From contig NCHB01000010.1 in assembly GCA_002281755.1 (NCBI GenBank), positions 6,644 through 70,643 of the forward strand: DNA of 64,000 nucleotides, written 5' to 3'. A program made the translations under genes and the position numbers. A model generated the notes under the pieces. That model had not been told where the DNA came from. It did no database searches and was given only the letters and a program-made list of their open reading frames with translations. Below are positions 30,375 through 54,984 of the stretch, one piece after another (position 1 is the first letter of the stretch; the number at the start of each line of letters is the position of its first letter). Source of the stretch: Sulfurovum sp. 16-42-52. GTDB taxonomy: Bacteria; Campylobacterota; Campylobacteria; Campylobacterales; Sulfurovaceae.

Positions 30375-32882
30375 ATGAAAGCTGTTGTTATGGCAGGTGG
30401 TTTTGGAACTAGAATCCAACCCCTTACTAACTCAAGACCAAAACCAATGTTGCCCGTTGTCAATAAACCGATGATGGAGCATACGATGATGATGCTTAAA
30501 GCGGTGGGGATAAGTGAATTTATTGTGTTGCTTTACTTCAAGCCTGAAATTATCAAAGCTTATTTTGGTGACGGCAGTGATTTGGGTATCAAGATCACCT
30601 ATGTGGTTCCCGATGATGATTATGGTACAGCTGGTGCCGTGAAATTGGCGCAGGAGTATATCGGTGATGAAAATTTTATCATCATCAGCGGAGACCTTGT
30701 GACAGATTTTGATTTTCAGAAAATATTTGACTTTCATGCCCAAAAAGAGTCTAAACTCACGATAACGCTCACTTCGGTCGATAATCCTTTGGAGTTTGGT
30801 GTGGTCATAGCCAACGAAGAAGGAAAGATAGAAAAATTTTTGGAAAAGCCAAGCTGGGGGGAAGTGTTCAGTGACACCATCAACACGGGTATCTATATCC
30901 TCGAACCTGAGATTTTGGAGTATATCCCTAAAAATGAGAACTATGACTTCGGCAAAGACCTTTTCCCAAAACTGATGTCTGAAGGTGTAGGGCTGATGGC
31001 GGGATATGCGCAAGGGTATTGGCGTGATGTGGGCAATCCTGAGAGTTACCGTGATGTGTATGATGATATCCTAACGGGTAAAGTGAAGTTCAACTATGAG
31101 GGTGAAGCGACGCACTATCCTGATGGAGTGGTTTATGCTGAGGAGTCTTATGATTTTGATAAAAGTGTGGAGTTTGTCGGTACGGTAGTATTGGGTAAAA
31201 ATGTCACGCTAAAGAAGGGCGTAAAACTCAACAATGTCGTCATCGGCGATAATGTCACTATCGGAAAAGAGAGCAAGATCCGTAATACCGTGATATGGAA
31301 TGATGTAGAGATACACGCAAAAGCCAAGCTGGATAATTGTGTCATCTGCAATGATAACATCATCGGAAAGAATGTCACTGCAAAAGCAGGGATGATACTG
31401 GCTGAAGGGTGTGAGATCGGTCAGCTGGTTACCATTGAGCAGGATGTGACAATCTGGCCTGACAAAGTGATTGAAGTGGCTTCTATCGTGAGCCATAGTT
31501 TGATTTTAGGCAGCAAATACAAAAATTCGATCTTTGAAAACGGGATGGTGGTCGGTCAGTCCAATGTAGAGCTCTCCTGTGAGATGGCAACCAAACTGGC
31601 TGAAGCTTTTGGTGCCCAGCTTCCTATCGGTTCAATCGTGTTGGTCTCAAGGGACACCCACAAGAGTTCACGGATGCTCAAGCGTGCTTTTCTAGGCGGA
31701 TTGCTCTCTGCAGGGGTCAATGTGATTGACTATCGTGACATTCCCTCATCTGTATTGCGTTGCAGTCTCTCAGCAAACGATCAGTACATCGCAGGGATAC
31801 ATTTTCGCCAAAAAATTGATGATCCTACCAGTACGGTCATCACTTTTTACAATGAGGAAGCACTGCGCATCAACAATGAGGTGGCAAAAAAGGTAGAAAA
31901 GGCATTTTTTAAAGAGACATTCAGACGGGTGGACTATTCCAACATCGGTCAGATTGAAGAATCTGACCACGTCAAAGAGTATCACGGATACAAAGAAGGG
32001 ATGAAGTCTTTACTGAAATCCCACTCTTTTGCCACACTTGAACACCGTGTAGCGGTAGATATGATGCACGGTATGGCATCAGAAGTGTTCCCTGATATCC
32101 TCAATGATATGGGGGTAGAAAACATCATGTTCAATGCCCACCCTGATGAACACCGCCTTGCCAATATCAATGCCCTAGTTAAGCAGTCCAGACAGGATAT
32201 GAGCGCGGTGATTAAAGCACTGAAGCTTGACGGAGGTTTTATGCTCTACCCTTACGGTCAGCGTTTGGATATCGTCTGTGATCAGGGAACGGTGCTGGGT
32301 AAACAGTCTTCTTTGTATGTGGTGTTGTCACTTCTCAATATGGAAGCCAAGCAGCAAGGGGTGAAAAAAAGTGTCTTTTTGCCCACTTGGGCAGCCGATA
32401 TTGTCTATTTTGAAAACCTTGAGATAGAACGGGGTAAATATGTGAACTTTAAAGCGCAGAAGATGAAAGAGTATGATCTTGTGGCTACGGGTGAAGGTAA
32501 TTTTGCCTTTACGGAGTTTGCAACGCACCGTGATTCGATGTATGCGACTTTGAAAATCCTTGAGATGCTCTCAAACCACAAAATGACGCTTTCTCAAATT
32601 ATTACTTCTTTTCCGAAGTTTTACTACAAGACGACAAAAGTAGTCTGTACGCAGGCACTCAAAGGCAAAATGATGCGCAAGTTCCTTGAAGATGCCAAAG
32701 GCAAAGAGTCATCTACACTCGATGGTGTCAAGATATGGTTAGATACCCATGACTGGATTTTGATGATCCCCAATCAGTACAGCGATCATCTCAATCTCTA
32801 CATCCAGGCAGAAAATGAGGGTAAAGGCGAAGCCATCTTGGCGCAATACAGTGCCAAAATCGAAGAATGGTCTAAAGAATAA
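30375..32882 (+). CDS. Sugar-1-phosphate nucleotidyltransferase + hexapeptide repeats + degenerate PGM/PMM fusion (usually annotated mannose-1-P guanylyltransferase)
   Basis: MAGGFGTRIQPLT, KPMLP, FLEKP, YWRDVG; LbH repeats; C-terminal phosphohexomutase fold. Confidence 0.85.
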   Translation: MKAVVMAGGFGTRIQPLTNSRPKPMLPVVNKPMMEHTMMMLKAVGISEFIVLLYFKPEIIKAYFGDGSDLGIKITYVVPDDDYGTAGAVKLAQEYIGDENFIIISGDLVTDFDFQKIFDFHAQKESKLTITLTSVDNPLEFGVVIANEEGKIEKFLEKPSWGEVFSDTINTGIYILEPEILEYIPKNENYDFGKDLFPKLMSEGVGLMAGYAQGYWRDVGNPESYRDVYDDILTGKVKFNYEGEATHYPDGVVYAEESYDFDKSVEFVGTVVLGKNVTLKKGVKLNNVVIGDNVTIGKESKIRNTVIWNDVEIHAKAKLDNCVICNDNIIGKNVTAKAGMILAEGCEIGQLVTIEQDVTIWPDKVIEVASIVSHSLILGSKYKNSIFENGMVVGQSNVELSCEMATKLAEAFGAQLPIGSIVLVSRDTHKSSRMLKRAFLGGLLSAGVNVIDYRDIPSSVLRCSLSANDQYIAGIHFRQKIDDPTSTVITFYNEEALRINNEVAKKVEKAFFKETFRRVDYSNIGQIEESDHVKEYHGYKEGMKSLLKSHSFATLEHRVAVDMMHGMASEVFPDILNDMGVENIMFNAHPDEHRLANINALVKQSRQDMSAVIKALKLDGGFMLYPYGQRLDIVCDQGTVLGKQSSLYVVLSLLNMEAKQQGVKKSVFLPTWAADIVYFENLEIERGKYVNFKAQKMKEYDLVATGEGNFAFTEFATHRDSMYATLKILEMLSNHKMTLSQIITSFPKFYYKTTKVVCTQALKGKMMRKFLEDAKGKESSTLDGVKIWLDTHDWILMIPNQYSDHLNLYIQAENEGKGEAILAQYSAKIEEWSKE

Positions 32883-32884
32883 GT

Positions 32885-34873
32885 ATGAAGCCTTCACTCA
32901 ATCTCTGTTTTTTCTGGCATATGCATCAGCCTGATTATCGTAACAGAGAGGGGGTGATGAGTATGCCGTGGGTATTTTTGCATGCGATTAAAGATTATTA
33001 TGAAATGCCTTGGCTGTTGAGCCGTCACAAAGGACTCAAAGCGACATTCAACATTACCGCTCCTTTGATAGAACAACTCAACCTCTATAGAGATCCTCTC
33101 AAAAATGACTATTTTCTTTCATTGTGGGCAAAAGAACCCTCTTTATTGTCGCAAGAAGAGCGGATATGGCTGATTAAAACCTGTAAATCAACCCAGTATC
33201 ATCAAGAAATTCTTAGCGATGCAGAACTGATAGACTTTGAAGTGCTTTTTATGCTGGCGTGGTGCGGTAACTATCTGCGTCAAAACCATACACTGGTAAA
33301 AACCCTGTTTCAAAAAGAAAAAGGGTTTACTTGGAGCGATAAAGCACAGCTGCTTCAAGCTTTATGTGATTTTATAGAGACCATCTTGCCTTTTTATGCC
33401 CGTTTGCAAGAAGAAGGGGTGGTTTCTGTCTCCACTACACCTTACAACCACCCCATCTTACCCCTGTTACTGGACAGTTTTAATGCAAAACGCGCCAACG
33501 AACACACAACACTGCCCGATAATCCGCTCTCTTTAAGAGAAGATGCCATTGAACAGGTCGAACGCTCAATAACACTCTACAAAAAGACTTTCGGGAAAGC
33601 TCCAACGGGGTTCTGGCCAGCTGAGGGTGCGGTGGATGAAGAGAGTGTAGAAATCTATAAAGAACGAGGCATAGGCTGGATAGCCACGGATGAGGCGATA
33701 CTGTTTCGTTCACTGGATGATGATACACGAGCCAATCTGTACAAACCCTATGTCTTTAACGGTATGACAATTAGTTTTAGGGATCACGGGCTTTCTGATT
33801 TGATAGGGTTTAATTATCGTTTTAAAACAGGACAGGATGCCAGTGCACATTTTATGCAAGTGGTGGAGCCTATAGCACATTCGCAAGAGAATGCCACCCT
33901 TTTTGTCATACTCGATGGTGAAAATGCTTGGGAGTTTTTTGAAAACAATGCCTATGATTTTTTTACTGCATTGTATGAACTTATCTCGGTCACTGATTGG
34001 TGCACAACAGTCACGATGGATGAAGTCTCACGCATGAAACATAAAGGCTATTTGGAACAACTCAGTGCCGGAAGCTGGATACATGGAAACTTTGATACAT
34101 GGTCGGGACATAGCGAAAAAAACCGTGCGTGGGAACTGATCTATCAGACCAAGCGTGATGTGGAAAATTATGACGGGCTTGTATCACAGGAAGTAGCTGA
34201 AGAAATCAGGTTTCATTTTCTAGCCTCTGAGTGCAGCGACTGGTTTTGGTGGTATGGCGATGATCATGTCACAGAGTTTGGGCTAGAGTTTGACACGCTG
34301 TTTAGAGAGCATCTTATCGCTATTTATCATCTGCTTCATATGCAGCCGCCATCAGACCTTTTTATCCCGATTATGGCGCATAAGAGTGCTGTATCCTTTT
34401 TGCTGAAACCTCAAGCACCTATATCACCATTGATAGATGGCAAAAACAGTTCTTTTTTTGAATGGCTGGGAGCAGGAAGCGTGGATGAAAGTAAACTCTA
34501 CTCGACCATGGACAGGGTACGCGGTCCTGTGGAGAAGATCTATTACGGGCATAACGACGTGACACTTTTTTTGGCTTTTGAAGGGCAGATAGCCGCACTT
34601 GAGAAGCAAGGGCAGTATCTTGAGATCATCATAGAACAGACAGGGGAACATCTTCGTTTTTCCATGGACAAGCCTTATGAAGACAAGGATACGACATTCA
34701 TCATAGGCGAGCGTATGGAATTGGCACTCTCAAGAAGACATTTCAAAGAACACAGCTCAGTGCATTTGCGTTTTGAGATAGTACGGGGTAATGAGATCGT
34801 CCAAACCATGCCAGGGTATGGCGCACTCCATGTGGATATGGACGAAAGTTATGCCAACAATTGGTTTGTTTAA
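32885..34873 (+). CDS. GH57 glycoside hydrolase (amylopullulanase-like)
   Basis: WHMHQP, HPILPLL, GFWPAEGAV, ILDGENAWE, ECSDWFWW. Confidence 0.9.
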   Translation: MKPSLNLCFFWHMHQPDYRNREGVMSMPWVFLHAIKDYYEMPWLLSRHKGLKATFNITAPLIEQLNLYRDPLKNDYFLSLWAKEPSLLSQEERIWLIKTCKSTQYHQEILSDAELIDFEVLFMLAWCGNYLRQNHTLVKTLFQKEKGFTWSDKAQLLQALCDFIETILPFYARLQEEGVVSVSTTPYNHPILPLLLDSFNAKRANEHTTLPDNPLSLREDAIEQVERSITLYKKTFGKAPTGFWPAEGAVDEESVEIYKERGIGWIATDEAILFRSLDDDTRANLYKPYVFNGMTISFRDHGLSDLIGFNYRFKTGQDASAHFMQVVEPIAHSQENATLFVILDGENAWEFFENNAYDFFTALYELISVTDWCTTVTMDEVSRMKHKGYLEQLSAGSWIHGNFDTWSGHSEKNRAWELIYQTKRDVENYDGLVSQEVAEEIRFHFLASECSDWFWWYGDDHVTEFGLEFDTLFREHLIAIYHLLHMQPPSDLFIPIMAHKSAVSFLLKPQAPISPLIDGKNSSFFEWLGAGSVDESKLYSTMDRVRGPVEKIYYGHNDVTLFLAFEGQIAALEKQGQYLEIIIEQTGEHLRFSMDKPYEDKDTTFIIGERMELALSRRHFKEHSSVHLRFEIVRGNEIVQTMPGYGALHVDMDESYANNWFV

Positions 34874-34906
34874 ACACGTACACACAAGAGAAAGGATAAC
34901 ACGCAG

Positions 34907-36955
34907 ATGAAGGCTACAACAAAATTACTCTTTGGGATACATATGCACCAGCCTGTAGATAACTTTGACTGGGTGATACAACAGGGCGTTGAGGTATGTT
35001 ACGGACCATTTTTTGAAGTGATGAGCCGGTATCCGGAGTTTCGATTTTCGGTGCACTGCAGCGGTTGGCTGATGGAGCAGATACAAAAACACCATCATAA
35101 ACTCTATAAACAGATACACACTTTGGCAAAACAAGGCAGTATAGAGTTTTTCTCTGCAGGCTATTATGAGCCGATACTGAGTGTCATCCCTTCACAAGAC
35201 CGAGTTGAGCAGATAGAGTTGCTAAACGAGAGCATCGCTTCAGATTTTCATCAAAAACCCAAAGGCTTGTGGCTAACCGAGCGCGTTTGGGAGTCCTCGC
35301 TGATACCTGATCTTCATAAGGCAGGCATCAAGTACACGGTTATGGATGATTATCATTTTCAGTGTGCAGGATTTGATGAGGCGATTTTGGACGGGTATTT
35401 TATGACTGAGGAGGGCGGCAAAACGCTTGGGCTTTTTCCTATCAGTAAAAAACTGCGTTATGCCATCCCTTTTTTAAAGGTAGAGGCAGCGATTAAGGCG
35501 ATCAAATCCTTTGATGCAAAAGAGAGTTCTGCAGCGATTATCTTTGATGACGCTGAGAAGTTCGGGATGTGGCCAGGAACGTATGAATGGGTTTATGCAA
35601 AAGGCTGGCTTGAGCGTTTTGTACAGGCCGTCCTTGCTGATGAATCCATAGAAACGATGCATTACGGAGCGTATTTTGAGCAGGAGCGTACCCGTGGCAT
35701 CGCCTACCTTCCTAATGTCTCTTATGCCGAGATGGGTGAATGGAGTCTGAGAGCAGACGACACACTAAAACTTGAAGCACTCAAAAAAGAGATGGGGCAC
35801 GAACGCTATGAGCGTGAGGGTGTCAAATTTTTAAAAGGTGGCATCTGGAAAAACTTTTTGGTCAAATACGAAGAGAGTAACCGTATCCATAAGCGCACTC
35901 TGGAGCTTTCAAAAGTGCGAGAACATGTCGATAAACCTAAGTTTGATACAGCCCTCTACAAAGCACAAACCAATGACGCACTCTGGCATGGGGTTTTTGG
36001 GGGACTCTACCTGCCCAACTTGCGTGACAATGCTTACACCTACATCATCGAAGCAGAAAACATCCGTTACGGCCGCAAAAACCGCATCGAGTCTGACCAC
36101 AATGAGCTTGATGGGTATGAGAAGATTAAGATGGTGATTCCAAAATATATTTTCCGTTTTGATGGCGCACAGGGTGGACAACTGGTGGAGTTTGATAACC
36201 GAAAAGCCTTGTTTAACTGGCAAAATACCTTAACAAGACGCAAAGAAGCGTATCATCAGCGACTCCTTGAAGAGACACCCCAGAGTGATGAAGAGAATCT
36301 ACCAAAAGAAGAGGGCATCGATACGATTCACCATGCGATGGTTGAAGTGGATGAAAAGTTGCGCAATGCGATTATCTATGACTGGTATCTTAAAAACTCT
36401 TTTGTAGACCACATCAGTGATGCGCGTTTTAATGCGGACAATTTTTATCACTGCAATTTTGCGGAATATGGTGATTTTGCCAATCAGCCTTTTGAAGTGA
36501 CTCAGGGTAAACAACAGGTGACCTTCGTGCGTAAGGGCGGGTTGTATGTGCCGCATAAGATACCTGCGCGACTGGAAAAAACCTACAGACCACAGTCAAA
36601 TGGATTTGATTTTGACATCACGCTTTCTACGCAATCAGAGGGGGATTTTAGCTATATTTTAGAGCACAATTTTCATTTTGCCGACTATGATACCGTCACA
36701 CTCAATGGTGAAACGCTAAGTGAAAAAGGCATCTTTGAAGGTGCATCCATGCTTGAAATCAGCGATGGACACCTTGGGCAGAAGATTTGTATCACTCTTG
36801 ATAAAGCCTGCGATATTTACTATTTTCAGCTCAAAACGCTCTCACAGAGCGAACACGGTTTTGATCTGAGTGTGCAGGGGATCAGCTTGGCTATGGTGCT
36901 GCCTTTTAGTGGTGCATTGAGCCTTAAAGGCTTTTTGGAGGTGGTGCATGTCTAG
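34907..36955 (+). CDS. GH57 4-alpha-glucanotransferase / alpha-amylase
   Basis: HMHQP, YYEPIL, WLTERVWE, FDDAEKFG, QTNDALWHGVFGGLY. Confidence 0.9.
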   Translation: MKATTKLLFGIHMHQPVDNFDWVIQQGVEVCYGPFFEVMSRYPEFRFSVHCSGWLMEQIQKHHHKLYKQIHTLAKQGSIEFFSAGYYEPILSVIPSQDRVEQIELLNESIASDFHQKPKGLWLTERVWESSLIPDLHKAGIKYTVMDDYHFQCAGFDEAILDGYFMTEEGGKTLGLFPISKKLRYAIPFLKVEAAIKAIKSFDAKESSAAIIFDDAEKFGMWPGTYEWVYAKGWLERFVQAVLADESIETMHYGAYFEQERTRGIAYLPNVSYAEMGEWSLRADDTLKLEALKKEMGHERYEREGVKFLKGGIWKNFLVKYEESNRIHKRTLELSKVREHVDKPKFDTALYKAQTNDALWHGVFGGLYLPNLRDNAYTYIIEAENIRYGRKNRIESDHNELDGYEKIKMVIPKYIFRFDGAQGGQLVEFDNRKALFNWQNTLTRRKEAYHQRLLEETPQSDEENLPKEEGIDTIHHAMVEVDEKLRNAIIYDWYLKNSFVDHISDARFNADNFYHCNFAEYGDFANQPFEVTQGKQQVTFVRKGGLYVPHKIPARLEKTYRPQSNGFDFDITLSTQSEGDFSYILEHNFHFADYDTVTLNGETLSEKGIFEGASMLEISDGHLGQKICITLDKACDIYYFQLKTLSQSEHGFDLSVQGISLAMVLPFSGALSLKGFLEVVHV

Positions 36956-37976
36956 CATTCGGTATGACCGTATCCATGACACCCATGTGATTATCGCGCC
37001 TGAACGATTGTATCGTCCTGATTGCAGTTTTGGTGCGGATGAGCTTCAAAATGTTGAACCAACTTGTGCTTTTTGTGAAGGCAACGAATCGATGACACCG
37101 CCTGAAATTTTTGCCACGAGGAATCCCCAAACCCTTGCCAACACAGCAGGATGGCAGACCCGTGTCGTCCCCAATCTATATAAAGCGGTACAGATAGAAG
37201 CCCCTTATGCGCATCACTATGGTTTGTTTGAATACCACGAAGGGTTTGGCGCGCATGAAGTCATCATCGACACACCAGAACACTTGACTTCCATGACACA
37301 ATGGAACGCGCAGACAGCCGTACAGTGGCTCAAAACACTGCGTGCCAGAGTGCATGATCTGCGCCGTGATCAGCGTATGGCGTATATCTCTGTGTTTAAA
37401 AATGAAGGTATACTTGCAGGGGCAACACAGACACATTCGCATACACAGATGATCGGATTGCCGTTTGTGCCCAATGTTGCCAGAGAAAACTATAGAAGAA
37501 GTTACGAACACTATAAACAGCATGGCATATCCCTCTTGCAGTCCTGCGTTCAACATGAAGAAGAGCAACAGGAGCGCGTGATTGCCAAACATGGGGATTT
37601 TACTGCTTTTTGTCCCTTTGCCAGTGCGTATGCCTTTGAAGTGATGATCACCTCCCAAAAAGCACTGGGGCAGATCGATACCCTAAGTGATGAAAGTATC
37701 AACACACTGGCACCTCTGCTTCTTGCTACGCTTCGTGTTCTCAAAGCTCAACTGGTCTGTTTTGCTTTCAATCTTGTCATCACAACCCCACCTCTGCAAG
37801 AAGGCAGTGCGGATTATGGTATGCTTTCTTGTGTGGATGAAGCCTGTCGTTTTGCGGTGCGCATCATGCCACGCATCTACAAGCACGGGGGTTTTGAAGT
37901 AGGTACGGGTGTGTATATCAATCCTGTTTTGCCTGAAGTAGCCGCCAAATTATTGAGAGAGGGCATCGATGTCTAA
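36948..37976 (+). CDS. GalT/HIT-family nucleotidyltransferase (possible ADP-glucose phosphorylase)
   Basis: CAFCEGNE, VVPNLY, HEVIID, GATQTHSHTQ (HxHxQ), FEVGTG..INPV.PE. Confidence 0.85.
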   Translation: MSSIRYDRIHDTHVIIAPERLYRPDCSFGADELQNVEPTCAFCEGNESMTPPEIFATRNPQTLANTAGWQTRVVPNLYKAVQIEAPYAHHYGLFEYHEGFGAHEVIIDTPEHLTSMTQWNAQTAVQWLKTLRARVHDLRRDQRMAYISVFKNEGILAGATQTHSHTQMIGLPFVPNVARENYRRSYEHYKQHGISLLQSCVQHEEEQQERVIAKHGDFTAFCPFASAYAFEVMITSQKALGQIDTLSDESINTLAPLLLATLRVLKAQLVCFAFNLVITTPPLQEGSADYGMLSCVDEACRFAVRIMPRIYKHGGFEVGTGVYINPVLPEVAAKLLREGIDV

Positions 37977-42819: not shown

Positions 42820-42851
42820 TTTGTTGCTTTTTTAGGATAGGACTTTAAAAT

Positions 42852-42914
42852 CTAATCCAGAGTGCAAGACCTATGAATAAAAAAGAGAGGATAGCTTATG
42901 AAAACCATTCCTAA
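42852..42914 (+). pseudogene. brnT: 3' remnant of a BrnT-family toxin gene
   Basis: Frame reads LIQSARPMNKKERIAYENHS*, matching the BrnT C-terminus pattern (ISARxMNKKER..YE) and overlapping the brnA start. In-frame TAA at 42846; no upstream coding room. Confidence 0.7.
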
Positions 42915-43149
42915 ATTTACGACACCAGAAGAAGAACAAACATTTTGGCAGAACCATGACAGTACTGAGTTTCTGGATTGGGAAAAAGCAAAAAAAGTCA
43001 AACTTCCAAACCTAAAGAAGAGTACAAAAACCATCTCGTTAAGGCTACCTGCGGATATGCTTGAAACGCTAAAGATAAGAGCCAACGCGATGGATATTCC
43101 TTATCAATCGCTCATCAAGATGTTTTTGCAAAAAGAGCTAGGGTCTTAA
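42898..43149 (+). CDS. BrnA/CopG-type antitoxin
   Basis: IPKF..EEE..FW..HDSTEFLDW, KTISLRLP, IPYQSLIK. Confidence 0.88.
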   Translation: MKTIPKFTTPEEEQTFWQNHDSTEFLDWEKAKKVKLPNLKKSTKTISLRLPADMLETLKIRANAMDIPYQSLIKMFLQKELGS

Positions 43150-43169
43150 CCAAGATAGGTGACTTTTAA

Positions 43170-44804: not shown

Positions 44805-45000
44805 GGTGTGCCTTTTGTAAAGTTGAAATGTGAATGATAGTGTATCGTCTCTCTTCTATAATTTGGCATAGGCTATTGGTTAAAATTGAAACAATGGTGT
44901 TATTTTTTTTCTGTGGATTTTTGACTATAATTAACACAGGTACTCCTCAAGCTAACTAAGAGATAGATGAGTGATAGTGCCATGTTAAACAAAGGGTAAA

Positions 45001-47955: not shown

Positions 47956-47970
47956 AACAAGGATAGCAGT

Positions 47971-48954
47971 ATGATACTAGCAGGTGATATAGGCGGAACC
48001 AAAACCAACCTTGCACTTTTTGAAGCCCAAGATGGCAAACTTCAGGTTGTCGTGCAAAAACAGTTTGCCAGTCAAAAGTATGCCACTTTTTCAGATGTGA
48101 TAGAGGCTTTTAAAAAAGAGTGTGTGCTGCCTACGATTGATGCGGTTTGTTTTGGCATTGCAGGGCCTATCATCGGGGGAGACTGTGAGACGACAAATCT
48201 GCCTTGGAAAATCAGTACACAGGCACTCCAAGACTACTTAGGGATCAAAAAGGTACGTTTGTTAAATGATCTTGAAGCCACAGCCTATGGGATGTTGTAT
48301 GTACCCCAAGAGGAGTTTGTAGATTTGAATCCAAGTGCTCAGACGCTGAAGGGCAATCGTGCCGTTATCGCTGCGGGAACGGGACTGGGTGAAGGCATCT
48401 TGTATGATGATGGCGCACGCTACCATCCCATAGGCTCTGAAGGAGGTCACAGCGATTTTGCACCTCTAACGCCTCAGCAAGATGCGCTTCTTTTGTGGTT
48501 GCGTATGCGTTATCCTGAACATGTCAGTTATGAACGCATCCTCTCAGGCTCAGGGATATCTACCCTTTATGCGTTTTTGCTTGAGAGCGGTTTTGCGCCA
48601 CAACCCCAAAGCATGTTGCATCTTAATGAAGATGAAGACCGCAGTGCAATCATCAGCCAATGCGCACTAAATGATGGTGATCCTTTATGTGTGGAAACCT
48701 TGCGGCTCTTTGCCCAAATCTATGGTGCTGAAGCAGGCAATCTTGCGTTAAAAAGTATGTCTCTTGGAGGCGTATACATCGGCGGAGGCATTGCTCCCAA
48801 GATTTTACCGATGTTAAGAGAGAGTCATTTTATGGATGCTTTTGTCAGCAAAGGACGTTTTGAAAAAATGCTGAGTAAGATGCCGGTTCGGGTCTGTCTC
48901 AATCCCGAGACTGCCTTGCTGGGTGCTGCCTATTTCGCACACGATATGCTGTAA
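47971..48954 (+). CDS. glk: Glucokinase
   Basis: AGDIGGTKT, LLNDLEA, GTGLGEG, SEGGH, GGVYIGGGIAPK. Confidence 0.95.
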   Translation: MILAGDIGGTKTNLALFEAQDGKLQVVVQKQFASQKYATFSDVIEAFKKECVLPTIDAVCFGIAGPIIGGDCETTNLPWKISTQALQDYLGIKKVRLLNDLEATAYGMLYVPQEEFVDLNPSAQTLKGNRAVIAAGTGLGEGILYDDGARYHPIGSEGGHSDFAPLTPQQDALLLWLRMRYPEHVSYERILSGSGISTLYAFLLESGFAPQPQSMLHLNEDEDRSAIISQCALNDGDPLCVETLRLFAQIYGAEAGNLALKSMSLGGVYIGGGIAPKILPMLRESHFMDAFVSKGRFEKMLSKMPVRVCLNPETALLGAAYFAHDML

Positions 48955-49082
48955 AACAGTGTATTCTCTTTTTATACATTCTATTGACTAAAATATAATC
49001 AAGACACGTATTTTTTTGTTATCGTATTGCGTTATACTCATTCTATAGCATTTATCTAACGGGACAGTTGAGGATAGAGAGA

Positions 49083-50546
49083 ATGAATGAGATCAAAAGC
49101 GACTGTGACATTATAGTCTTTGGCGGACACGGTGATTTGGCTTTTAGAAAACTGATGCCTGCACTGTATCATTTGAGTAATAACGGCTATATCGATGAGA
49201 CAAGCCGTATTATCACCGCAACACGGGATGCGATGAGTCTGGAAGAGCATTGCAGACTCACACGCTCCAAACTACAGGAGTTTTTACCCGAAGCAGACTT
49301 TGATGAAGCAAAATGGCTTCGTTTTGAAAAACAGCTTCAGGTTGTGATTATCGATTTCGGTGAAAATGAAAGTTACAGCGGACTCAAAGCGTTACTGGAT
49401 GCCTATCCTCAGAGAGATAGAGTGAACTATCTTTCTACGGCTCCCGATTTTTTTGGTGCGATTTGTAAGTCGCTGAGTCAGTGGGAACTCATCAGCCCCC
49501 AAAGTAGAGTGGTACTGGAAAAACCAATCGGGCGTGATCTTCACTCTTCAAGAGTTATTAACGTTGAGGTTTTAAAGTATTTTGACGAATCACAGATTTA
49601 CCGTATCGATCACTATCTAGGCAAAGACACGGTGCAGAACATCATGGCACTTCGATTTTCAAATCGCTTTTTTATGCCGCTTTGGGATGCAAGTAACATT
49701 GACCATATCCAGATTACTGTGGCTGAAAGTGTTGGCGTTGAGGGACGCTGGGGGTATTATGATGAGTACGGTGCGATGCGTGACATGATACAGAACCATC
49801 TCATGCAGCTGCTTTGTCTTGTGGCGATGGAGCCACCTTGCTCTGTAGATGCAGACAATGTGCGTGATGAAAAGGTAAAAGTCTTACGATCTTTGCGCCT
49901 TATGACACCATCGGATATCGAGCAAAAAACAGTTCGTGCCCAATACACTCAAGGAGCAAGTAGCGGCGAGCCTGTACCAGGATATCGCGAGGGAGAGGGA
50001 GTGAGCGAAAGCAATACAGAGACTTTTGCCGCTATTCGTGTCGATATAGACAATTGGCGCTGGAACGGCGTACCGTTTTATCTTAGAAGCGGAAAACGTA
50101 TGCGTCAGAGAAATTCGGAAATCGTGATCTACTTTAAAGCCGTTCCGCACTCTATCTTTGTCAATCAGGGCAAATGTATCTCGGAAAATAAACTGGTGAT
50201 ATCCCTGCAACCCAAAGAGAGCATCCATCTTCAGCTGATGAACAAGATCCCGGGGCTGAGCGAACATATGCGTTTGCAAAAAGTTGAACTTGAACTCAAT
50301 ACACCTCTTAACACAACCCATAAACCAGATGCCTACGAGCGTCTGCTTCTGGATGTGATTCGCGCCAACCCGACACTCTTTATGCGACTGGATGAAGTGG
50401 AAGCCGCATGGAAATGGGCAGATGTGATCTTAAAAGGATGGCAGGAAGATGTTGTCCCCATGAAAAGCTACAGTGCAGGTACAGACGGACCAAGCGCAGC
50501 CGTACAGCTCATCGCGCGAGACGGACGGAGCTGGCACGATGAGTAG
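49083..50546 (+). CDS. zwf: Glucose-6-phosphate dehydrogenase
   Basis: GGHGDLAFRKL, RIDHYLGK, GAMRDMIQNH, WNGVPFYLRSGK; ATG 49083. Confidence 0.97.
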   Translation: MNEIKSDCDIIVFGGHGDLAFRKLMPALYHLSNNGYIDETSRIITATRDAMSLEEHCRLTRSKLQEFLPEADFDEAKWLRFEKQLQVVIIDFGENESYSGLKALLDAYPQRDRVNYLSTAPDFFGAICKSLSQWELISPQSRVVLEKPIGRDLHSSRVINVEVLKYFDESQIYRIDHYLGKDTVQNIMALRFSNRFFMPLWDASNIDHIQITVAESVGVEGRWGYYDEYGAMRDMIQNHLMQLLCLVAMEPPCSVDADNVRDEKVKVLRSLRLMTPSDIEQKTVRAQYTQGASSGEPVPGYREGEGVSESNTETFAAIRVDIDNWRWNGVPFYLRSGKRMRQRNSEIVIYFKAVPHSIFVNQGKCISENKLVISLQPKESIHLQLMNKIPGLSEHMRLQKVELELNTPLNTTHKPDAYERLLLDVIRANPTLFMRLDEVEAAWKWADVILKGWQEDVVPMKSYSAGTDGPSAAVQLIARDGRSWHDE

Positions 50547-51234
50547 GGTATTGCACAGTTTTCAGACTCAGGAAACCCTGATAGATGCTTTGAGCCAAAG
50601 TATACTGAAAAATCTTCAAGAAGCCATAGAGGAAAGAGGAAAAGCATCTTTGATCGTCTCAGGAGGCAGCACGCCAAAGCCCTTGTTCCAAAAACTGAGC
50701 ACGCTGTCTTTTGCGTGGGAAAAGGTGAGTGTAGGTTTGTGTGATGAGCGATGGATACCCGCTTGGGATGAAGAGAGCAACGAACATCTGGTTAAAACCT
50801 ATCTGCTTCAAGACAAAGCAAGTGCAGCTACTTTTGTGGGGATGTATGAAGAGGGATGTGAGGCAGGAGAAGCTGAAATACTATGTTCCCAAAAGATCAA
50901 AGAGAGTCTGTTTCCTTTTGATGTGCTGGTGTTAGGAATGGGAGTTGATGCCCATACCGCTTCTTTGTTTCCGTACAATGTCAAACTGGGACAGGCTTTT
51001 GATCTGGAGTCTGAAGCGCTTTGTATCGCCATCGAGCCTACAACGGCACCCTATATGCGGTTGAGTTTGACACGCAAGGCGCTATTGAGTGCGCAGCATA
51101 TCTATCTGCATTTTGAAGGCAAAGAAAAACAGGCTGTTTATGCGGAGGTGATTGCGGGGGATGATTGTTATGCCATGCCTGTGCGAACCGTTTTAAATCA
51201 AAATGACAAACAAATAGAGGTGTATTACCGATGA
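50539..51234 (+). CDS. pgl: 6-phosphogluconolactonase
   Basis: VSGGSTP, DERW, LGMGVDAHTASLFP; start moved to 50539. Confidence 0.95.
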   Translation: MSRVLHSFQTQETLIDALSQSILKNLQEAIEERGKASLIVSGGSTPKPLFQKLSTLSFAWEKVSVGLCDERWIPAWDEESNEHLVKTYLLQDKASAATFVGMYEEGCEAGEAEILCSQKIKESLFPFDVLVLGMGVDAHTASLFPYNVKLGQAFDLESEALCIAIEPTTAPYMRLSLTRKALLSAQHIYLHFEGKEKQAVYAEVIAGDDCYAMPVRTVLNQNDKQIEVYYR

Positions 51235-53060
51235 ATGAAACGATCTTAAGTGTCACAGATGCCATCATAAAACGTTCGGCAAAGAGCAGAGCCGTCTATC
51301 TGGAGCGCATCGCACAAGCAAAAGTGCAGGGCGTGAACCGAAACAAACTGGGGTGCAGTAATCTCGCCCATGCCATGGCTCCGATGGATGAGAATGAAAA
51401 GAATGCACTTGCAGGCATGCAAAGTCCCAACATTGCTATCGTTACAGCCTATAACGATATGCTCTCAGCGCATGAGCCCTACAAACTCTATCCGGCACTG
51501 ATTAAACGCACATTTAAAGATTTGGGCGCTACGGCTCAGGTTGCTGGTGGTGTACCTGCCATGTGTGACGGCATCACGCAGTCACAGCCGGGTATGGAGC
51601 TGAGTCTGTTCAGTCGGGACAATATCGCCATGGGAACAGCGATTGGGCTTTCTCACAATGTCTATGACGGTGCATTGTATCTGGGTGTATGTGACAAGAT
51701 CGTACCCGGGCTGGTTATCGGTGCATTGGCGTTTGGTCATCTGCCGGGGATGTTTGTACCCGCAGGTCCGATGCCCTCAGGTATCAGTAATGCACAAAAA
51801 GCCAAGGTACGTCAAGAGTTTGCCCAAGGCAAAGTAAGCGAAGACTCTTTGCTTAAAGTGGAAGCAGCTTCTTACCACAGTAGCGGCACCTGTACCTTTT
51901 ACGGTACCGCCAATTCAAATCAGATGCTGCTTGAAATGATGGGGTTGCAGCTTCCAAACAGCTCTTTTGTCAACACCAATACACCCCTCAGAGAAGCACT
52001 CACAGCAGAGGCAGCCAAAACCATCGTGGGGATGACGAATCTATCGGGAAACTATAAACCCATAGCAGAAATCATTGATGAAAAAAGTTTTGTCAATGCC
52101 ATCGTCGGCTTGATGGCAACGGGAGGTTCAACCAACCATACCATCCATATCATCGCCATGGCAAGAGCTGCGGGGATTGTCCTCAACTGGGATGATTTTG
52201 ATGCCATTTCCAAAGTCACACCTTTACTGTGCAAGATGTACCCCAACGGGCAGGCTGATGTCAACCATTTTAGAGATGCCGGCGGTATGAGTGTGGTCAT
52301 TTCGCAGCTGCTTGATGCTGGACTGGTACACAATGATGTCCAAACCGTTGTAGGAAAAGGCTTGGATGCTTATATCGCTGAACCTACTCTCAACCAAGGG
52401 AGTGTCATTTTTCAAGAGGGAGCCAAAACGTCAAGAGATACATCGGTCATTGCAAGCATTCAAGCACCATTTAGTACTGAGGGCGGACTCAAACTGCTCA
52501 ATGGCAATCTGGGTCGCAGTGTCATCAAAACCTCTGCACTCAAACCCGAACAGTTCGTCATCGAAGCGGAGGCCATCGTCTTTGAATCGCAGGAATCTTT
52601 ACAGACTGCATTTAAAAAGGGTGAGTTGGAAAAAGACTTTATCGCTGTTGTACGCTATCAGGGGCCAAAGTCCAACGGTATGCCTGAACTGCATGGACTT
52701 ATGCCACCTTTGGGTGTACTGCAAGATAAAGGCTTTAAGGTGGCTATTGTCACCGATGGGCGTATGTCAGGGGCTTCAGGAAAAGTGCCTTCAGCCATTC
52801 ACCTCTCTCCTGAAGCACTTGATGGAGGGATGCTAGCAAAAGTTAAAACAGGCGATATGATCCGTTTTGATGCCCAAAAAGGTGAGATTTTACTTTTGGT
52901 AGAAGAGGAAGAACTACAAACACGAAGCATAGAACTACCCGATATGCAGAGCAATCGACACGGTTTTGGCAGAGAGCTTTTTGTCTGGGTACGCCAAAGC
53001 ATAGGCTCAGCTGAAGAGGGTGCTTGCGTGTTTGATATCAGCGGAAAGGAGCGTGCATGA
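51231..53060 (+). CDS. edd: Phosphogluconate dehydratase
   Basis: [40 protein letters not shown]. Confidence 0.96.
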
Positions 53061-53698
53061 CAGCCAAAGAAGTGATGCAAATCTCACCCATCGTCCCCGT
53101 CATCGCTTTAGAAAAAGTGGAGGATGCTTTGGCGCTTGCTGAAGCGTTGCTTGAAGGTGGTATAAGCGTGATGGAAGTCACACTTCGCACCGATGCAGGA
53201 CTCAAAGCCATAGAAGCCATAGCGAAGTCCATGCCGCAGATGCATGTGGGTGCAGGAACAGTACTCAATGCAAATGACATGAAAGCCGCACTGTTGCATG
53301 GGTCGCAGTTTGTCTTTAGTCCGGGTATCTCTGAAGAACTGATGCGGGCTTCTAGGGAGATGGACATCACACTCATTCCCGGTGTAGCGACGGCGTCTGA
53401 AGTGATGCTGGCTAAAAATCATGGATTTGAGCACTGTAAACTCTTTCCCGCTACGCTGGCTGGCGGGGTTGAAGCCCTCAAAGCGTTTGGCGGGCCTTTT
53501 GCTTCTATGCGATTTTGTCCCACAGGAGGGGTAGGTCTCGCCAATCTCAATGACTTTTTGGCACTTCCCAATGTGCTGTGCGTAGGCGGAAGCTGGATAG
53601 TACCCAAAACATCCATAGACAACAAAGATTTTAAGCACATCACAAGACTCTGCAAAGAGGCACTGCAGACAATTCAATCAACAAAGGTGACAGTATGA
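53057..53698 (+). CDS. eda: KDPG/KHG aldolase
   Basis: EVTLRT, VGAGTV, FSPG, KLFPA, FCPTGG. Confidence 0.96.
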   Translation: MTAKEVMQISPIVPVIALEKVEDALALAEALLEGGISVMEVTLRTDAGLKAIEAIAKSMPQMHVGAGTVLNANDMKAALLHGSQFVFSPGISEELMRASREMDITLIPGVATASEVMLAKNHGFEHCKLFPATLAGGVEALKAFGGPFASMRFCPTGGVGLANLNDFLALPNVLCVGGSWIVPKTSIDNKDFKHITRLCKEALQTIQSTKVTV

Positions 53699-54906
53699 AA
53701 AACAAACTCTATTTCAATGCCAACAATACAAAGGAGGAGCAAAGAGCGTTTGAAGCCATCGTGAAAGAACAGGAAACAGTCGGGTATTATGCCTTGCCAA
53801 ATCAGGATGTGAGCCCTATACTGGAGTATTGCAACACCATTTCGCAGGATGTAACCACCATCGCAGTCATCGGCATCGGTGGGAGTTCTTTGGGTGCCAA
53901 AGCGGTGTATGAGTTTATGAAACCGGTTAAAGAACTAAGCAGAAAACTCTATTTTTTTGAAAGTACCGATCCTATCAACATCACTGATTTGCTCTCTAAG
54001 TTTGATGTTAAAACCACCCATTTTTTGGTCATCTCCAAGTCAGGTAGCACGGTGGAGACTTTTTCTATTTATAAATATATCTATTCCTTGCAAAGTGACC
54101 CCTCTGCCTATACCTTCATCACCGACCCAGGGTCTCCGCTTGAAAAGTATGCGCAGTCCATCAAAGCTTCAGTGCTGCATCTGCCCGATAATGTAGGCGG
54201 TAGATTTTCAGTACTCTCAAGCGTAGGACTTGTACCACTCGCACTATGCGGCATCGATATCATCTCTTTACTAGCAGGTGCAAAAAAGATAAAAAGCAGT
54301 TTTTTTGACAATGGTTATACACAGGACATGCTTCTAAATAAAGCCGTCTACTACGCCAAAAACCACGCACAGTACAACATCAACTGTATCTTTGCTTATT
54401 CTGAAACACTCAAGTATTTTTGTCAGTGGTATGTACAGCTGTGGGGGGAGAGTCTGGGTAAACACCAGCGTCACAGTGCTTTTCATGTAGGTCTTACTCC
54501 TATCGGTCTCATCGGACCCAAAGACCAGCACTCCTTTTTACAGCTCATCATGGAAGGCACAAGAGACAAGTCTGTGACGTTTATCAAGATTGAAGATTTT
54601 CATGAAGATATCGTCATCCCTGACATCACCCTGCCACATCTTGAGATGCTCGACACACTCAATAACCTGCCATTCTCAAAACTCATCAATATGCAGTGTG
54701 ACTCAGTCGTAGAAGCCTTGCTGGATCAAGAGAGTATCCCACTCGATACCATCACCCTGCAAAGTGTCACAGAGGACAACATCGGATCGTTGATATTTTA
54801 CTACGAACTGCTGACTTCTTTGGTAGGAGAACTTATCGATGTGAACACCTATGACCAGCCAGGGGTGGAAGCGGGCAAGATTATTTTGAAGAAAAAACTG
54901 GGGTAA
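53695..54906 (+). CDS. pgi: Glucose-6-phosphate isomerase
   Basis: GIGGSSLG, SKSGSTVET, VGGRFSVLS, QLWGESLGK, YDQPGVEAGK. Confidence 0.95.
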   Translation: MKNKLYFNANNTKEEQRAFEAIVKEQETVGYYALPNQDVSPILEYCNTISQDVTTIAVIGIGGSSLGAKAVYEFMKPVKELSRKLYFFESTDPINITDLLSKFDVKTTHFLVISKSGSTVETFSIYKYIYSLQSDPSAYTFITDPGSPLEKYAQSIKASVLHLPDNVGGRFSVLSSVGLVPLALCGIDIISLLAGAKKIKSSFFDNGYTQDMLLNKAVYYAKNHAQYNINCIFAYSETLKYFCQWYVQLWGESLGKHQRHSAFHVGLTPIGLIGPKDQHSFLQLIMEGTRDKSVTFIKIEDFHEDIVIPDITLPHLEMLDTLNNLPFSKLINMQCDSVVEALLDQESIPLDTITLQSVTEDNIGSLIFYYELLTSLVGELIDVNTYDQPGVEAGKIILKKKLG

Positions 54907-54955
54907 GGCAGGTCATCAGAAATTACCAAACGCTTACTTCTCACATCACCCCTTT

Positions 54956-54984
54956 CCACTAGCCCTTTGTCTAGTGGGTTTTTC
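54956..54984 (+). terminator. Rho-independent terminator ending the ED operon
   Basis: CCACTAG-ccctttgt-CTAGTGG followed by GTTTTT. Confidence 0.7.

Follow-up and report, generated by a model that had tools for sequence, protein, structure and literature searches.

A predicted storage-glucan gene cluster with archaeal-type GH57 enzymes and Entner-Doudoroff genes in a Sulfurovum-like member of Campylobacterota

The analyzed window is a 64-kb stretch of DNA, and a Sulfurovum-like member of Campylobacterota is supported as its host. All 15 genes named in a preliminary description of this DNA, from the NTase fusion to pgi, are present at 30375-54906, on the forward strand except for pgm. Gene identities were assigned by Pfam, NCBIfam and PDB comparisons; glgA1, glgA2, glgB, pgm, pgi, glk, zwf, pgl, edd and eda exceed the curated NCBIfam cut-offs. 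These identities and cut-offs support the earlier view of one unit for making and degrading glycogen, linked to a full Entner-Doudoroff (ED) pathway.

Judging from spacing and synteny, seven genes form a conserved core operon (30375-42819), accompanied by three satellite units, namely pgm alone, GH15-glk, and zwf-pgl-edd-eda-pgi. The overlaps reported earlier are real, and their sequences can be read: GH57b and the GalT-like gene share ATGTCTAG at 36948-36955, glgA1 and glgA2 share ATGCATAA at 39401-39408, and pgl and edd share ATGA at 51231-51234. In addition, the GalT-like gene and glgA1 overlap by ATGTCTAA at 37969-37976. Thus, overlaps of 4-8 bp are observed at four junctions, and the remaining spacings are 2-3 bp, which may be counted in favor of translational coupling of the cluster genes. 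A terminator-like hairpin lies at 54955-54978, 3' of pgi. Because promoter and terminator scans showed no enrichment over shuffles, the operon boundaries are drawn from spacing and synteny alone.

The synteny expected across Campylobacterota was borne out. The order NTase-GH57a-GH57b-GalT-like-glgA1-glgA2-glgB is collinear in essentially every sufficiently long locus among 80 related Campylobacterota loci, with identities of 46-90% for the seven-gene core, and this collinearity means that the arrangement is not due to chance. Parts of the block also occur in five other phyla.

The first gene of the core operon (30375..32882) encodes an 835-aa fusion of a predicted NDP-sugar pyrophosphorylase, made up of an NTase domain (Pfam NTP_transferase, E 8e-58) and a left-handed beta-helix (LbH), and a PGM/PMM-like region (PGM_PMM_I-III). 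The NTase motifs are intact. In the PGM-like half, the mutase loops TASHNP, DGDxDR, and RxSGTEP are all replaced, and this degeneracy is conserved. This half is a conserved pseudo-mutase that has lost the catalytic serine and the metal and phosphate loops; a bifunctional mutase/NTase reading of the fusion was rejected on the same grounds. Therefore, a separate pgm must supply glucose-1-phosphate. The stand-alone gene (43170..44804, reverse strand) matches alpha-phosphoglucomutase (TIGR01132, 864 bits vs. 778) and is predicted to be bona fide and the real source of this metabolite. Most likely, the PGM-like domain would act as a sugar-phosphate-sensing or oligomerizing regulatory domain, replacing the allosteric control of canonical GlgC.

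The specificity of the NTase half is less sharply defined by its matches: the fusion reaches 140 bits with the glgC equivalog model (cut-off 425) and 254 bits with ManC (cut-off 440), and GDP-mannose and UDP-glucose enzymes are both among its closest solved relatives, with nearly equal E-values. The sugar nucleotides formed by archaeal relatives are GDP-, UDP-, or ADP-glucose. For the Sulfurovum protein, ADP-glucose is the probable product, in view of the GT5 synthases and the neighboring ADP-glucose-phosphorylase-like gene. Mannose-1-phosphate guanylyltransferases are the best NCBIfam and PDB matches, as would be the case if the fusion supplied envelope glycans with GDP-mannose or a different NDP-sugar and were a mere neighbor of the glycogen genes. 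We consider this highly improbable, since the ManC score is below the cut-off, the gene ends 2 bp from GH57a and is collinear with the glycogen genes where the upstream block is present, the same fusion directly follows a GalT-like gene in Gemmatimonadota, and the operon holds no other NDP-glucose source.

The next two genes belong to family GH57. GH57a (32885..34873) is amylopullulanase-like (PDB 9JLQ/8ZYI, E 1e-87), with an extra C-terminal region of ~180 aa. Its catalytic residues, Glu in WPAEGA and Asp in DGENAW, match Glu256 and Asp352 of the Aquifex enzyme AaApu, as given in PMC12106739. The Aquifex amylopullulanase, an endo alpha-1,4/alpha-1,6 hydrolase, has been shown to hydrolyze glycogen and pullulan; GH57a is a probable debranching and depolymerizing enzyme. 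GH57b (34907..36955; Pfam PF03065, PF09094, and PF09095, including the middle and C-terminal domains of 4-alpha-glucanotransferases) matches the Thermococcus litoralis 4-alpha-glucanotransferase over its full length (PDB 1K1W, E 2e-144) and keeps WLTERVW and DDxEKFG; it is predicted to be an enzyme of this type and a functional analog of GH77 MalQ. Thus, canonical glgX and GH77 genes are indeed missing from the window, as described earlier, but both functions appear to be covered by GH57a and GH57b.

Two GT5 glycogen synthase paralogs follow, glgA1 (37969..39408; TIGR02095, 510 bits vs. 328) and glgA2 (39401..40897; 550 bits), which are 39% identical to each other; glgA1 reads NDWQS at the site of NDWHT in glgA2. 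Across the loci, identity is 46-81% for glgA1, which is missing from three loci, and 61-90% for glgA2; the latter is the more conserved paralog, with glgA1 evolving faster. The TIGR02095 match begins at residue 28-29 of the long glgA2 ORF, and the ATG at 39401 is preferred as the start over the GTG at 39329. The last gene of the core operon is the GH13 branching enzyme glgB (40894..42819; NF003811, 935 bits vs. 741).

Between GH57b and glgA1 lies the gene of a GalT-like HIT-family nucleotidyltransferase (36948..37976). The protein matches PDB 1Z84 over its full length with E 2e-40, as against E 1e-13 for E. coli GalT, falls below the galT equivalog cut-off, and keeps the HSHTQ motif and Cys40, Cys43, His103, and His163. 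By these matches it is classed as an ADP-glucose phosphorylase homolog, closest to Arabidopsis At5g18200 (1Z84), for which this function is confirmed in the literature. Fusions found elsewhere, GlgA with a GalT-like domain (19 members) and GH57 with a GalT-like domain (7 members), provide Rosetta-stone links, and the gene stands directly beside GlgA, GH57, or NTase in five of eight sampled non-Campylobacterota phyla. Because it adjoins a GlgC-like NTase in two of the other phyla, Auribacterota and Omnitrophica, the GalT-like protein is a partner of such an enzyme and not its replacement.

Most likely, the GalT-like protein would interconvert ADP-glucose plus phosphate and ADP plus glucose-1-phosphate. 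The sum of this reaction and that of GlgA is exactly the glycogen phosphorylase reaction. Therefore, the enzyme should run towards phosphorolysis in cells and, with phosphate at its usual level, cannot bring about net synthesis, so that this ADP-glucose phosphorylase homolog is thermodynamically ill suited as the net source for the non-canonical ADP-glucose supply envisaged in the preliminary description. The protein might serve as a drain or a buffer for ADP-glucose; alternatively, together with reversed GlgA, it might carry out ADP-catalyzed phosphorolysis of glycogen. The latter could compensate for the phosphorylase apparently missing from the organism.

In an anabolic role, the same protein would form ADP-glucose and phosphate from ADP and glucose-1-phosphate, an ATP-free supply whose saving would benefit energy-limited lithotrophs. 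The homologous enzyme catalyzes a reversible reaction, fusion to GlgA would permit channeling of ADP-glucose, and the ratio of phosphate to glucose-1-phosphate falls under phosphate limitation; glycogen builds up under nutrient limitation, phosphate limitation included. However, coupled to GlgA, this would amount to a reversal of glycogen phosphorylase. The textbook value for phosphate over glucose-1-phosphate at equilibrium is ~3.6 at pH 6.8, and cellular phosphate is normally ~100-fold above glucose-1-phosphate; net synthesis is unfavorable, and channeling is no remedy. An NTP-consuming NTase moreover co-occurs with the GalT-like protein in the Campylobacterota loci and three other phyla. 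On balance, anabolic use of the GalT-like protein seems unlikely, and phosphorolysis is the preferred direction.

The second satellite unit begins with a phosphorylase-kinase-like GH15 protein (45001..47955; Pfam GH15, E 5e-76, and KPBB_C, E 1e-75). It is a full-length homolog of phosphorylase kinase (PhK) alpha/beta subunits (PDB 8JFK, PhK alpha, E 1.5e-197), sharing the GH15-like D1 domain and the C-terminal KPBB_C with the metazoan proteins, and keeps both catalytic glutamates of PhK alpha D1, Glu185 and Glu371, in GIWERG and LLPELY. PhK alpha, its closest characterized relative, has no detectable glucoamylase/hydrolase activity despite an intact-looking site. In contrast to PhK, the Sulfurovum gene has no gene for a kinase (gamma) or calmodulin partner nearby, and the protein is ~100-240 aa shorter than the alpha/beta subunits. 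Its placement in a glycogen locus, with the glucokinase gene next downstream, suggests an active hydrolase and not a scaffold, and it is a putative exo-glucosidase releasing glucose. Feeding of the ED pathway by GH57, GH15, and Glk, as proposed earlier, is plausible as a route, but with no activity detected for PhK alpha its GH15 step stays conjectural.

Glucokinase glk (47971..48954; TIGR00749, 278 bits vs. 225) starts 16 bp downstream of the GH15 gene. The third unit consists of zwf (glucose-6-phosphate dehydrogenase, start codon uncertain, 49068..50546; TIGR00871, 575 bits vs. 401), pgl (6-phosphogluconolactonase, 50473..51234; TIGR01198, 187 bits vs. 124), edd (phosphogluconate dehydratase, 51231..53060; TIGR01196, 986 bits vs. 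708), eda (KDPG aldolase, 53057..53698; TIGR01182, 258 bits vs. 156), and pgi (glucose-6-phosphate isomerase, 53695..54906; NF003016, 572 bits vs. 487). The true start of pgl is probably later than 50473, as the TIGR01198 match begins at residue 30. An ilvD identity for edd was rejected (330 bits, cut-off 618). In relatives, the same locus holds glycolytic genes together with kinases of the ROK or Glk type. The cluster contains no sugar transporter; therefore, the glucose is of intracellular origin. In Campylobacterota, glk, zwf, pgl, edd, eda, and pgi are likewise clustered in the ED (glc) loci of Campylobacter and Helicobacter. Unlike these, the Sulfurovum locus lacks a glucose transporter and adjoins glycogen genes, and thus it probably draws on glycogen of the same cell. 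ED pathways have been noted in chemolithoautotrophic Campylobacteria.

We interpret the region, with a probability of about 0.6, as serving glucan storage in a Sulfurovum-like chemolithoautotroph. Judged by family membership, synthesis would start with Pgi converting gluconeogenic fructose-6-phosphate to glucose-6-phosphate, from which the stand-alone Pgm would form glucose-1-phosphate; the NTase domain would use NTP to make NDP-glucose, probably ADP-glucose, and GlgA2 with GlgA1 would extend alpha-1,4 chains to be branched by GlgB. In degradation, GH57a would cut alpha-1,6 and alpha-1,4 bonds, GH57b would disproportionate the resulting maltodextrins and free glucose, and the PhK-like GH15 would probably release more. 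Glk would phosphorylate this glucose, and the ED pathway would yield pyruvate, glyceraldehyde-3-phosphate, and NADPH. Thus, a sulfur oxidizer would make and degrade glycogen with archaeal-type enzymes instead of the textbook ones, and the glycogen roles of three little-understood proteins in the cluster become open to testing.

The reported absence of canonical genes holds for this cluster: no GlgC, GlgP, GlgX, or GH77 MalQ was found among ORFs of at least 400 aa in the whole 64-kb window. However, in 38 of the 80 related loci an alpha-glucan phosphorylase of the TIGR02094 type is encoded within 10 kb of the operon, 76-84% identical across genera, with two Sulfurovum loci (L013 and L014) among the carriers. 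Therefore, the missing GlgP, real for this cluster, is at most a trait of the organism and not of the cluster type. These loci, the GlgC-like NTase beside the GalT-like gene in Auribacterota and Omnitrophica, and the restriction of the search to the window leave room for a GlgC-type NTase or a TIGR02093 or TIGR02094 phosphorylase elsewhere to carry the flux, the cluster being an ordinary glycogen locus with accessories. This is doubtful but the most serious of the alternatives. In the loci that include the upstream block, the NTase fusion is the first gene of the operon, except in one rearranged locus (L077), and in L001 and L020, the nearest relatives of identical layout, reverse-strand pgm and GH15 likewise occupy that slot. 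Furthermore, metagenome contigs at the depths of the window organism (11.6 and 77.8 in two runs) skip the phosphorylase gene, which is matched only by pieces of ~3.5x depth or less, whereas the positive controls glgA1, glgA2, and glgB were detected. For orthologs that have patches of 80% or higher nucleotide identity, which is the reach of this test, and with run X7 ambiguous, this suggests that the organism itself has no close phosphorylase copy.

With the classical GlgC-GlgA system of E. coli (glgBXCAP), the storage-glucan cluster shares a GT5 ADP-glucose-type synthase, a GH13 branching enzyme, the mixing of anabolic and catabolic genes in one operon, and the handling of maltodextrin end-products by Glk and a 4-alpha-glucanotransferase. 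It differs in lacking GlgC, GlgP (TIGR02093), GlgX (GH13_11), and GH77 MalQ, in having two GlgA paralogs and a ManC/archaeal-type NTase with a pseudo-mutase domain, in using GH57 enzymes for GlgX and MalQ, and in the added GalT-like and PhK-like GH15 proteins. The GalT-like protein and At5g18200 (1Z84/2H39) have in common, besides full-length homology, HxHxQ with the nucleophilic His and the Cys/Cys/His/His ligands of a structural zinc; the likeness is one of sequence, and the bacterial gene lies among glycogen genes or is fused to them. To our knowledge, even the plant enzyme lacks an established physiological role.

Archaeal and Aquificae glycogen and maltodextrin systems (Thermococcus 4-alpha-glucanotransferase with maltodextrin phosphorylase and GH57 amylopullulanase; Sulfolobus glgC-gaa-glgX/amyA-glgA) have in common with the cluster both GH57 types, a degradative GH15 glucoamylase, and a non-GlgC NDP-sugar pyrophosphorylase. 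The short phosphorylase type of Thermococcales is also carried by relatives of the Sulfurovum cluster. In contrast to these systems, the Sulfurovum host is a mesophilic bacterium with a bacterial GH13 GlgB and not a GH57 branching enzyme, its GH15 is the long PhK-like form, and the ED link and the GalT-like gene are present.

The ORF listing and profile searches located every gene that the preliminary description had assigned to the cluster at window positions 30375-54906. The plus strand begins with an 835-aa fusion of NTP_transferase/LbH and PGM_PMM domains (the NTase fusion, 30375-32882), followed by a GH57 protein (GH57a, 32885-34873), a second GH57 protein with 4-alpha-glucanotransferase middle and C-terminal domains (GH57b, 34907-36955), a GalT-like protein (36948-37976), the GT5 glycogen synthases GlgA1 (37969-39408; TIGR02095, 510 bits against a cut-off of 328) and GlgA2 (39401-40897; 550 bits, same cut-off), and the GH13 branching enzyme GlgB (40894-42819; 935 against 741). 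Next come pgm on the minus strand (43170-44804; 864 against 778), a plus-strand gene for a 984-aa GH15 protein with a KPBB_C region (45001-47955) and, 3' of the latter on the same strand, glk, zwf, pgl, edd, eda, and pgi, in this order and ending at 54906. All of these six, as well as glgA1, glgA2, glgB, and pgm, score above the curated NCBIfam cut-offs. The equivalogs of the Entner-Doudoroff (ED) pathway are complete (score/cut-off: zwf 575/401, pgl 187/124, edd 986/708, and eda 258/156 bits), and the edd score rules out IlvD as the identity of that product. The previously quoted junctions are also real, namely ATGTCTAG (36948-36955) between GH57b and the GalT-like gene, ATGCATAA between glgA1 and glgA2, and ATGA between pgl and edd; a fourth overlap, ATGTCTAA (37969-37976), couples the GalT-like gene with glgA1. 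The junctions on either side of the GalT-like gene, ATGTCTAG and ATGTCTAA, are near-identical 8-bp overlaps. Promoter and terminator scans gave no enrichment over shuffles, and operon boundaries were drawn from spacing and synteny only.

A scan of the genome collection with the GalT-like alignment yielded 353 relatives. The best 80 of these, taken as loci, all belong to Campylobacterota (Sulfurovum, Sulfurimonas, Sulfuricurvum, and Arcobacter). In tblastn searches of these 80 loci with the window proteins, the order NTase-GH57a-GH57b-GalT-like-glgA1-glgA2-glgB was observed in essentially all loci that are long enough, with identities of 46-90% for the core proteins; six loci lack GH57b and three lack glgA1. 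In contrast to this collinear core, the presence of pgm, GH15, glk, the ED genes, and pgi nearby varies, with ED genes within 10 kb in about seven loci. Thus, the conserved unit is the seven-gene core. The 24.5-kb cluster described initially is one local arrangement, common to the closest relatives (loci L001 and L020), while its first seven genes are conserved across Campylobacterota. Other loci have a phosphofructokinase, pyruvate kinase, phosphoglycerate kinase, or GAPDH gene beside the operon in place of the ED genes (L079 1939-2919, L007 12864-14318, L027 352-1635, and L026 12116-13147), which suggests that the glycolytic route linked to the glycogen operon differs between lineages. In 19 related loci (e.g., L023 12377-13285 and L078 12461-13291), a ROK-family sugar kinase is encoded between glgA1 and glgA2, linking another kind of glucose kinase to the operon. 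In three Sulfuricurvum loci, a second GH13/CBM48 protein is encoded downstream of the operon on the opposite strand (L034 18390-20177, minus strand); it is GlgB- or TreZ-like and falls under all cut-offs. In our literature searches, no paper found described the block itself, and earlier work made only passing mention of such clusters or of glycogen metabolism in sulfur-oxidizing Campylobacterota.

The best solved relative of the GalT-like protein is At5g18200 from Arabidopsis (PDB 1Z84/2H39; E 2e-40 over the full length), ahead of PaGalT (2e-21) and EcGalT (1e-13). In the literature, At5g18200 is described as an ADP-glucose phosphorylase, not a GalT. The HxHxQ motif is present (H163-S-H165-T-Q167), and the zinc ligands C40, C43, and H103 are kept. 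A Leloir class I galactose-1-phosphate uridylyltransferase was rejected, because the protein falls under the galT equivalog cut-offs (TIGR00209, 90.5 against 102.1; PRK11720, 110 against 448), neither galK nor galE was found in the window, and the gene neighbors glycogen genes in the 80 loci. The protein is a homolog of ADP-glucose phosphorylase, with the predicted reaction ADP-glucose + phosphate -> ADP + glucose-1-phosphate.

Three independent lines tie the GalT-like protein to glycogen. First, in Campylobacterota its gene is invariably flanked by GH57b and glgA1 and overlaps each of them by 8 bp. Second, it occurs in fusions: 19 proteins of 814 aa from several sources, including a Coprothermobacterota MAG, combine GlgA with a GalT-like domain (family P0233), and seven proteins of 872 aa from Arcobacteraceae MAGs combine it with GH57 (P0157). 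An additional 871-aa family, P0165, is a tandem double GalT-like protein. Third, in five of the eight sampled phyla other than Campylobacterota the gene directly adjoins glycogen genes. Its neighbor is GlgA in the Acidobacteria and Elusimicrobia sampled and the same NTase fusion in Gemmatimonadota, while in Auribacterota and Omnitrophica it is part of NTase/GlgA/GH57 blocks; no such adjacency was seen in the sampled Nitrospirae, Anaerolineae, and Verrucomicrobiota.

The preliminary description proposed a non-canonical supply of ADP-glucose. Replacement of GlgC by the GalT-like protein is unlikely for two reasons. In Auribacterota and Omnitrophica the adjoining NTase is GlgC-like, and thus the GalT-like protein accompanies NTP-dependent supply and does not replace it. 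The second reason is thermodynamic, and it is built on the sum of reactions, not on the Keq of ADP-glucose phosphorylase. An anabolic enzyme would convert ADP and glucose-1-phosphate to ADP-glucose and phosphate; with the GlgA step added, the overall reaction is that of glycogen phosphorylase in the opposite direction. By textbook values, glycogen phosphorylase is at equilibrium when phosphate exceeds glucose-1-phosphate about 3.6-fold, and cellular ratios differ widely from this value. Such a route is thus unfavorable for net synthesis, and we regard an anabolic reaction as quite improbable. More probably, the GalT-like protein runs towards phosphorolysis. It would then either control the ADP-glucose pool or, together with a reversed GlgA, release glucose-1-phosphate from glycogen in a cycle in which ADP is a catalyst.

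Both glycogen synthases have the KSGGLADV and EPCGL motifs. GlgA1 (37969-39408) reads (N/H)DWQ(T/S) at the place where GlgA2 reads NDWHT; the variable His/Gln presumably corresponds to His161 of E. coli GlgA. In a comparison including loci L078, L023, L009, L007, L082, L086, and L084, the (N/H)DWQ(T/S) form was also observed in GlgAs adjoining GalT-like genes in Acidobacteria, Elusimicrobia, and Auribacterota. The change from DWH to DWQ is not a universal signature of GalT-partnered GlgAs, as the P0233 fusion keeps His.

The N-terminal domain of the NTase fusion has the full set of the usual sugar-1-phosphate nucleotidyltransferase motifs and falls under every equivalog cut-off (ManC-like 254/440, glgC 140/425). 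Its closest solved relatives have mixed specificities at nearly equal E-values, and archaeal relatives are known to make ADP-, UDP-, or GDP-glucose; thus, no single nucleotide can be assigned. Production of GDP-mannose for some other purpose would agree with the ManC-like score, but is very improbable for a gene that heads the conserved glycogen block; supply of the nucleotide sugar for GlgA is the preferred function.

The C-terminal half of the fusion keeps the four-domain fold of mutases (Pfam PGM_PMM_I-III; PDB 9DU5, E 1e-31 over 432 residues), but alignment to the active archaeal mutases 9DU5 and 1WQA demonstrates that the catalytic loops are replaced: the phosphoserine loop TASHNP by RQKIDD, the metal loop DGDADR by YPYGQR, and the phosphate loop RASGTEP by IPNQYSD. 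This loop-by-loop comparison rules out a bifunctional PGM/NTase. Among three relatives compared, the Sulfurovum and "Arcobacter" homologs keep the same degenerate loops, and the Gemmatimonadota fusion, 29% identical, has a variant form. Judged by these residues, the C-terminal half is a conserved pseudo-mutase domain, which would account for the retention of a bona fide pgm (864 against 778 bits) beside the operon. We infer a regulatory, sugar-phosphate-binding role for this domain; conserved but dead as a mutase, it may take the place of the allosteric regulation known from canonical GlgC.

The reported absence of GlgC, GlgP, GlgX, and GH77 MalQ holds within the window. The NTase domain reaches 139.6 bits with the GlgC model TIGR02091 (cut-off 424.9), with no second candidate in the window, and no GT35 phosphorylase, GH13 debranching enzyme, or GH77 protein was found among all window ORFs of at least 400 aa. 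Two of the four functions are nevertheless covered by GH57 enzymes of families known from archaea and Aquificae. GH57b has the domains PF03065, PF09094, and PF09095, aligns over its full length with the Thermococcus litoralis 4-alpha-glucanotransferase (PDB 1K1W; E 2e-144), and keeps the nucleophile and acid/base motifs WLTERVW and DDAEKFG. It is assigned by this similarity to the T. litoralis type of GH57 4-alpha-glucanotransferases, a known functional analog of MalQ. For GH57a, the best match is the Aquifex aeolicus amylopullulanase AaApu (E 1e-87), which hydrolyzes alpha-1,4 and alpha-1,6 bonds of glycogen and pullulan. Among the GH57a motifs HMHQP, WPAEGA, DGENAW, and ECSDW, the second and third align with the AaApu dyad Glu256/Asp352. 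A role of GH57a as an analog of GlgX, with predicted alpha-1,6 activity, is plausible. Beyond the part aligned to the 477-aa Aquifex enzyme, GH57a has a C-terminal extension of approximately 180 aa (residues about 485-662) with no Pfam match.

The absence of GlgP is not a property of this cluster type. Clustering of the unassigned ORFs of the 80 loci revealed a family of approximately 550 aa in 38 loci, identified as a short GT35 alpha-glucan phosphorylase (TIGR02094, 418-437 bits against 192) related to the maltodextrin phosphorylase of Thermococcales. The gene is absent from the window. In L013 and L014, both Sulfurovum loci, it comes after glgB. L023 has it after the minus-strand pgm, in the slot filled by GH15 in the window, and in L015 this slot holds a 546-aa ORF. 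GH15 and the phosphorylase are not mutually exclusive, as L030 has both. We aligned the contigs of four metagenomes containing the window to L013. Contigs of the window organism (depths 11.6, 77.8, 30.9, and 10.5) match glgA1, glgA2, and glgB of L013 in patches, as a positive control, and skip its phosphorylase gene in three of the four runs (X1, X4, and X7, the last being ambiguous); in X1 and X4 this gene is matched only by pieces of about 3.5x depth or less. In run X5, two related populations cover L013 11000-18900: the window organism (depth 30.9), without a phosphorylase between glgB and glk, and another one, whose 19.5-kb contig of depth 54.4 has the phosphorylase gene after glgB. These data suggest, as moderate evidence and not proof, that the window organism has no close copy of the TIGR02094 phosphorylase. 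That canonical genes reside elsewhere in the genome is an unlikely but serious alternative, given the frequency of the phosphorylase in relatives.

The GH15 protein (45001-47955) is a full-length bacterial homolog of the alpha/beta subunits of metazoan phosphorylase kinase (PhK). It matches human PhK alpha (PDB 8JFK_M) with E 1.5e-197 in three stretches over D1 and the C-terminal region, and has the GH15-like D1 and KPBB_C architecture of this family (Pfam GH15 5e-76, KPBB_C 1e-75). An exact look-up of the protein returned no record. The catalytic glutamates Glu185 and Glu371 of PhK alpha D1 are kept, as GIWERG and LLPELY, respectively. The release of glucose by this protein, proposed initially, fits the context, since scanning of the window ORFs gave no protein-kinase domain and hence no sign of a gamma kinase/calmodulin complex with this protein as regulatory subunit, the gene neighbors pgm and glk, and glk starts 16 bp downstream. 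However, hydrolysis of maltose, isomaltose, or glycogen by PhK alpha itself could not be detected, so that the bacterial protein is at most a probable hydrolase. The glucoamylase-like domain of animal PhK has no known activity, and a bacterial ortholog in the context of glycogen degradation makes this question directly testable. Similarity between a bacterium and animals at this level points to gene transfer or to bacterial ancestry of the regulatory subunits of PhK.

Taken together, the original observation is confirmed and its interpretation is supported in part. In the best-supported model, glycogen would be made by Pgi, Pgm, the NTase, GlgA2/GlgA1, and GlgB and broken down by GH57a, GH57b, GH15, and Glk to feed the ED pathway, while the GalT-like protein would use ADP-glucose for phosphorolysis. 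The pathway logic (glycogen synthesis, debranching, disproportionation, glucokinase, and ED) and most of the enzyme families are already known. New or unexplored are the occurrence of this gene combination as an operon throughout a bacterial lineage, the conserved fusion of an NTase with a pseudo-mutase, the ADP-glucose phosphorylase homolog repeatedly adjoining or fused to glycogen genes in six phyla, and the full-length bacterial PhK alpha/beta homolog in the context of glycogen degradation. In the most specific reading, the GalT-like protein is a dedicated bacterial ADP-glucose phosphorylase performing two-step, ADP-catalyzed glycogen phosphorolysis with a reversed GlgA paralog, the pseudo-mutase domain is a new allosteric sensor replacing GlgC-type regulation, and the PhK-like GH15 protein is an active exo-hydrolase of glycogen or maltodextrins. 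We estimate the probability that all three hold jointly at roughly one in five. If true, two-step phosphorolysis would be a previously unrecognized route widespread across bacterial phyla, and an active PhK-like GH15 would show what the enigmatic GH15 domains of phosphorylase kinase originally did.

The flanking genes (a four-subunit pyruvate:ferredoxin oxidoreductase, isocitrate dehydrogenase, and SbtA) and the nearest relatives, which are Sulfurovum MAGs, fit an rTCA chemolithoautotroph; near-identical sequence was found in mine-drainage, tailings, and aquatic metagenomes, with no RNA runs among those listed. Sulfur-oxidizing Campylobacterota are major primary producers at vents, redoxclines, and in mine waters. 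The locus represents their lineage-wide glycogen solution from non-orthologous parts and singles out three uncharacterized players, the GalT-like homolog, the NTase with a dead mutase domain, and the bacterial PhK alpha/beta homolog. The linkage to the ED pathway suggests a way in which rTCA autotrophs could consume their internal reserve in energy starvation.

Two other genes of the window deserve mention. An 884-aa ORF (2958-5612) was considered as a hidden GlgP and rejected, showing no similarity to phosphorylase; it has no Pfam match and matches weakly (E 1e-5) a model of Alw26I/Eco31I-type adenine methyltransferases. Approximately 2 kb upstream of the glycogen operon, the minus strand encodes a CHAD-domain protein (27325-28275). 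CHAD domains are typical of polyphosphate-granule proteins, and two storage-polymer functions may be neighbors here.
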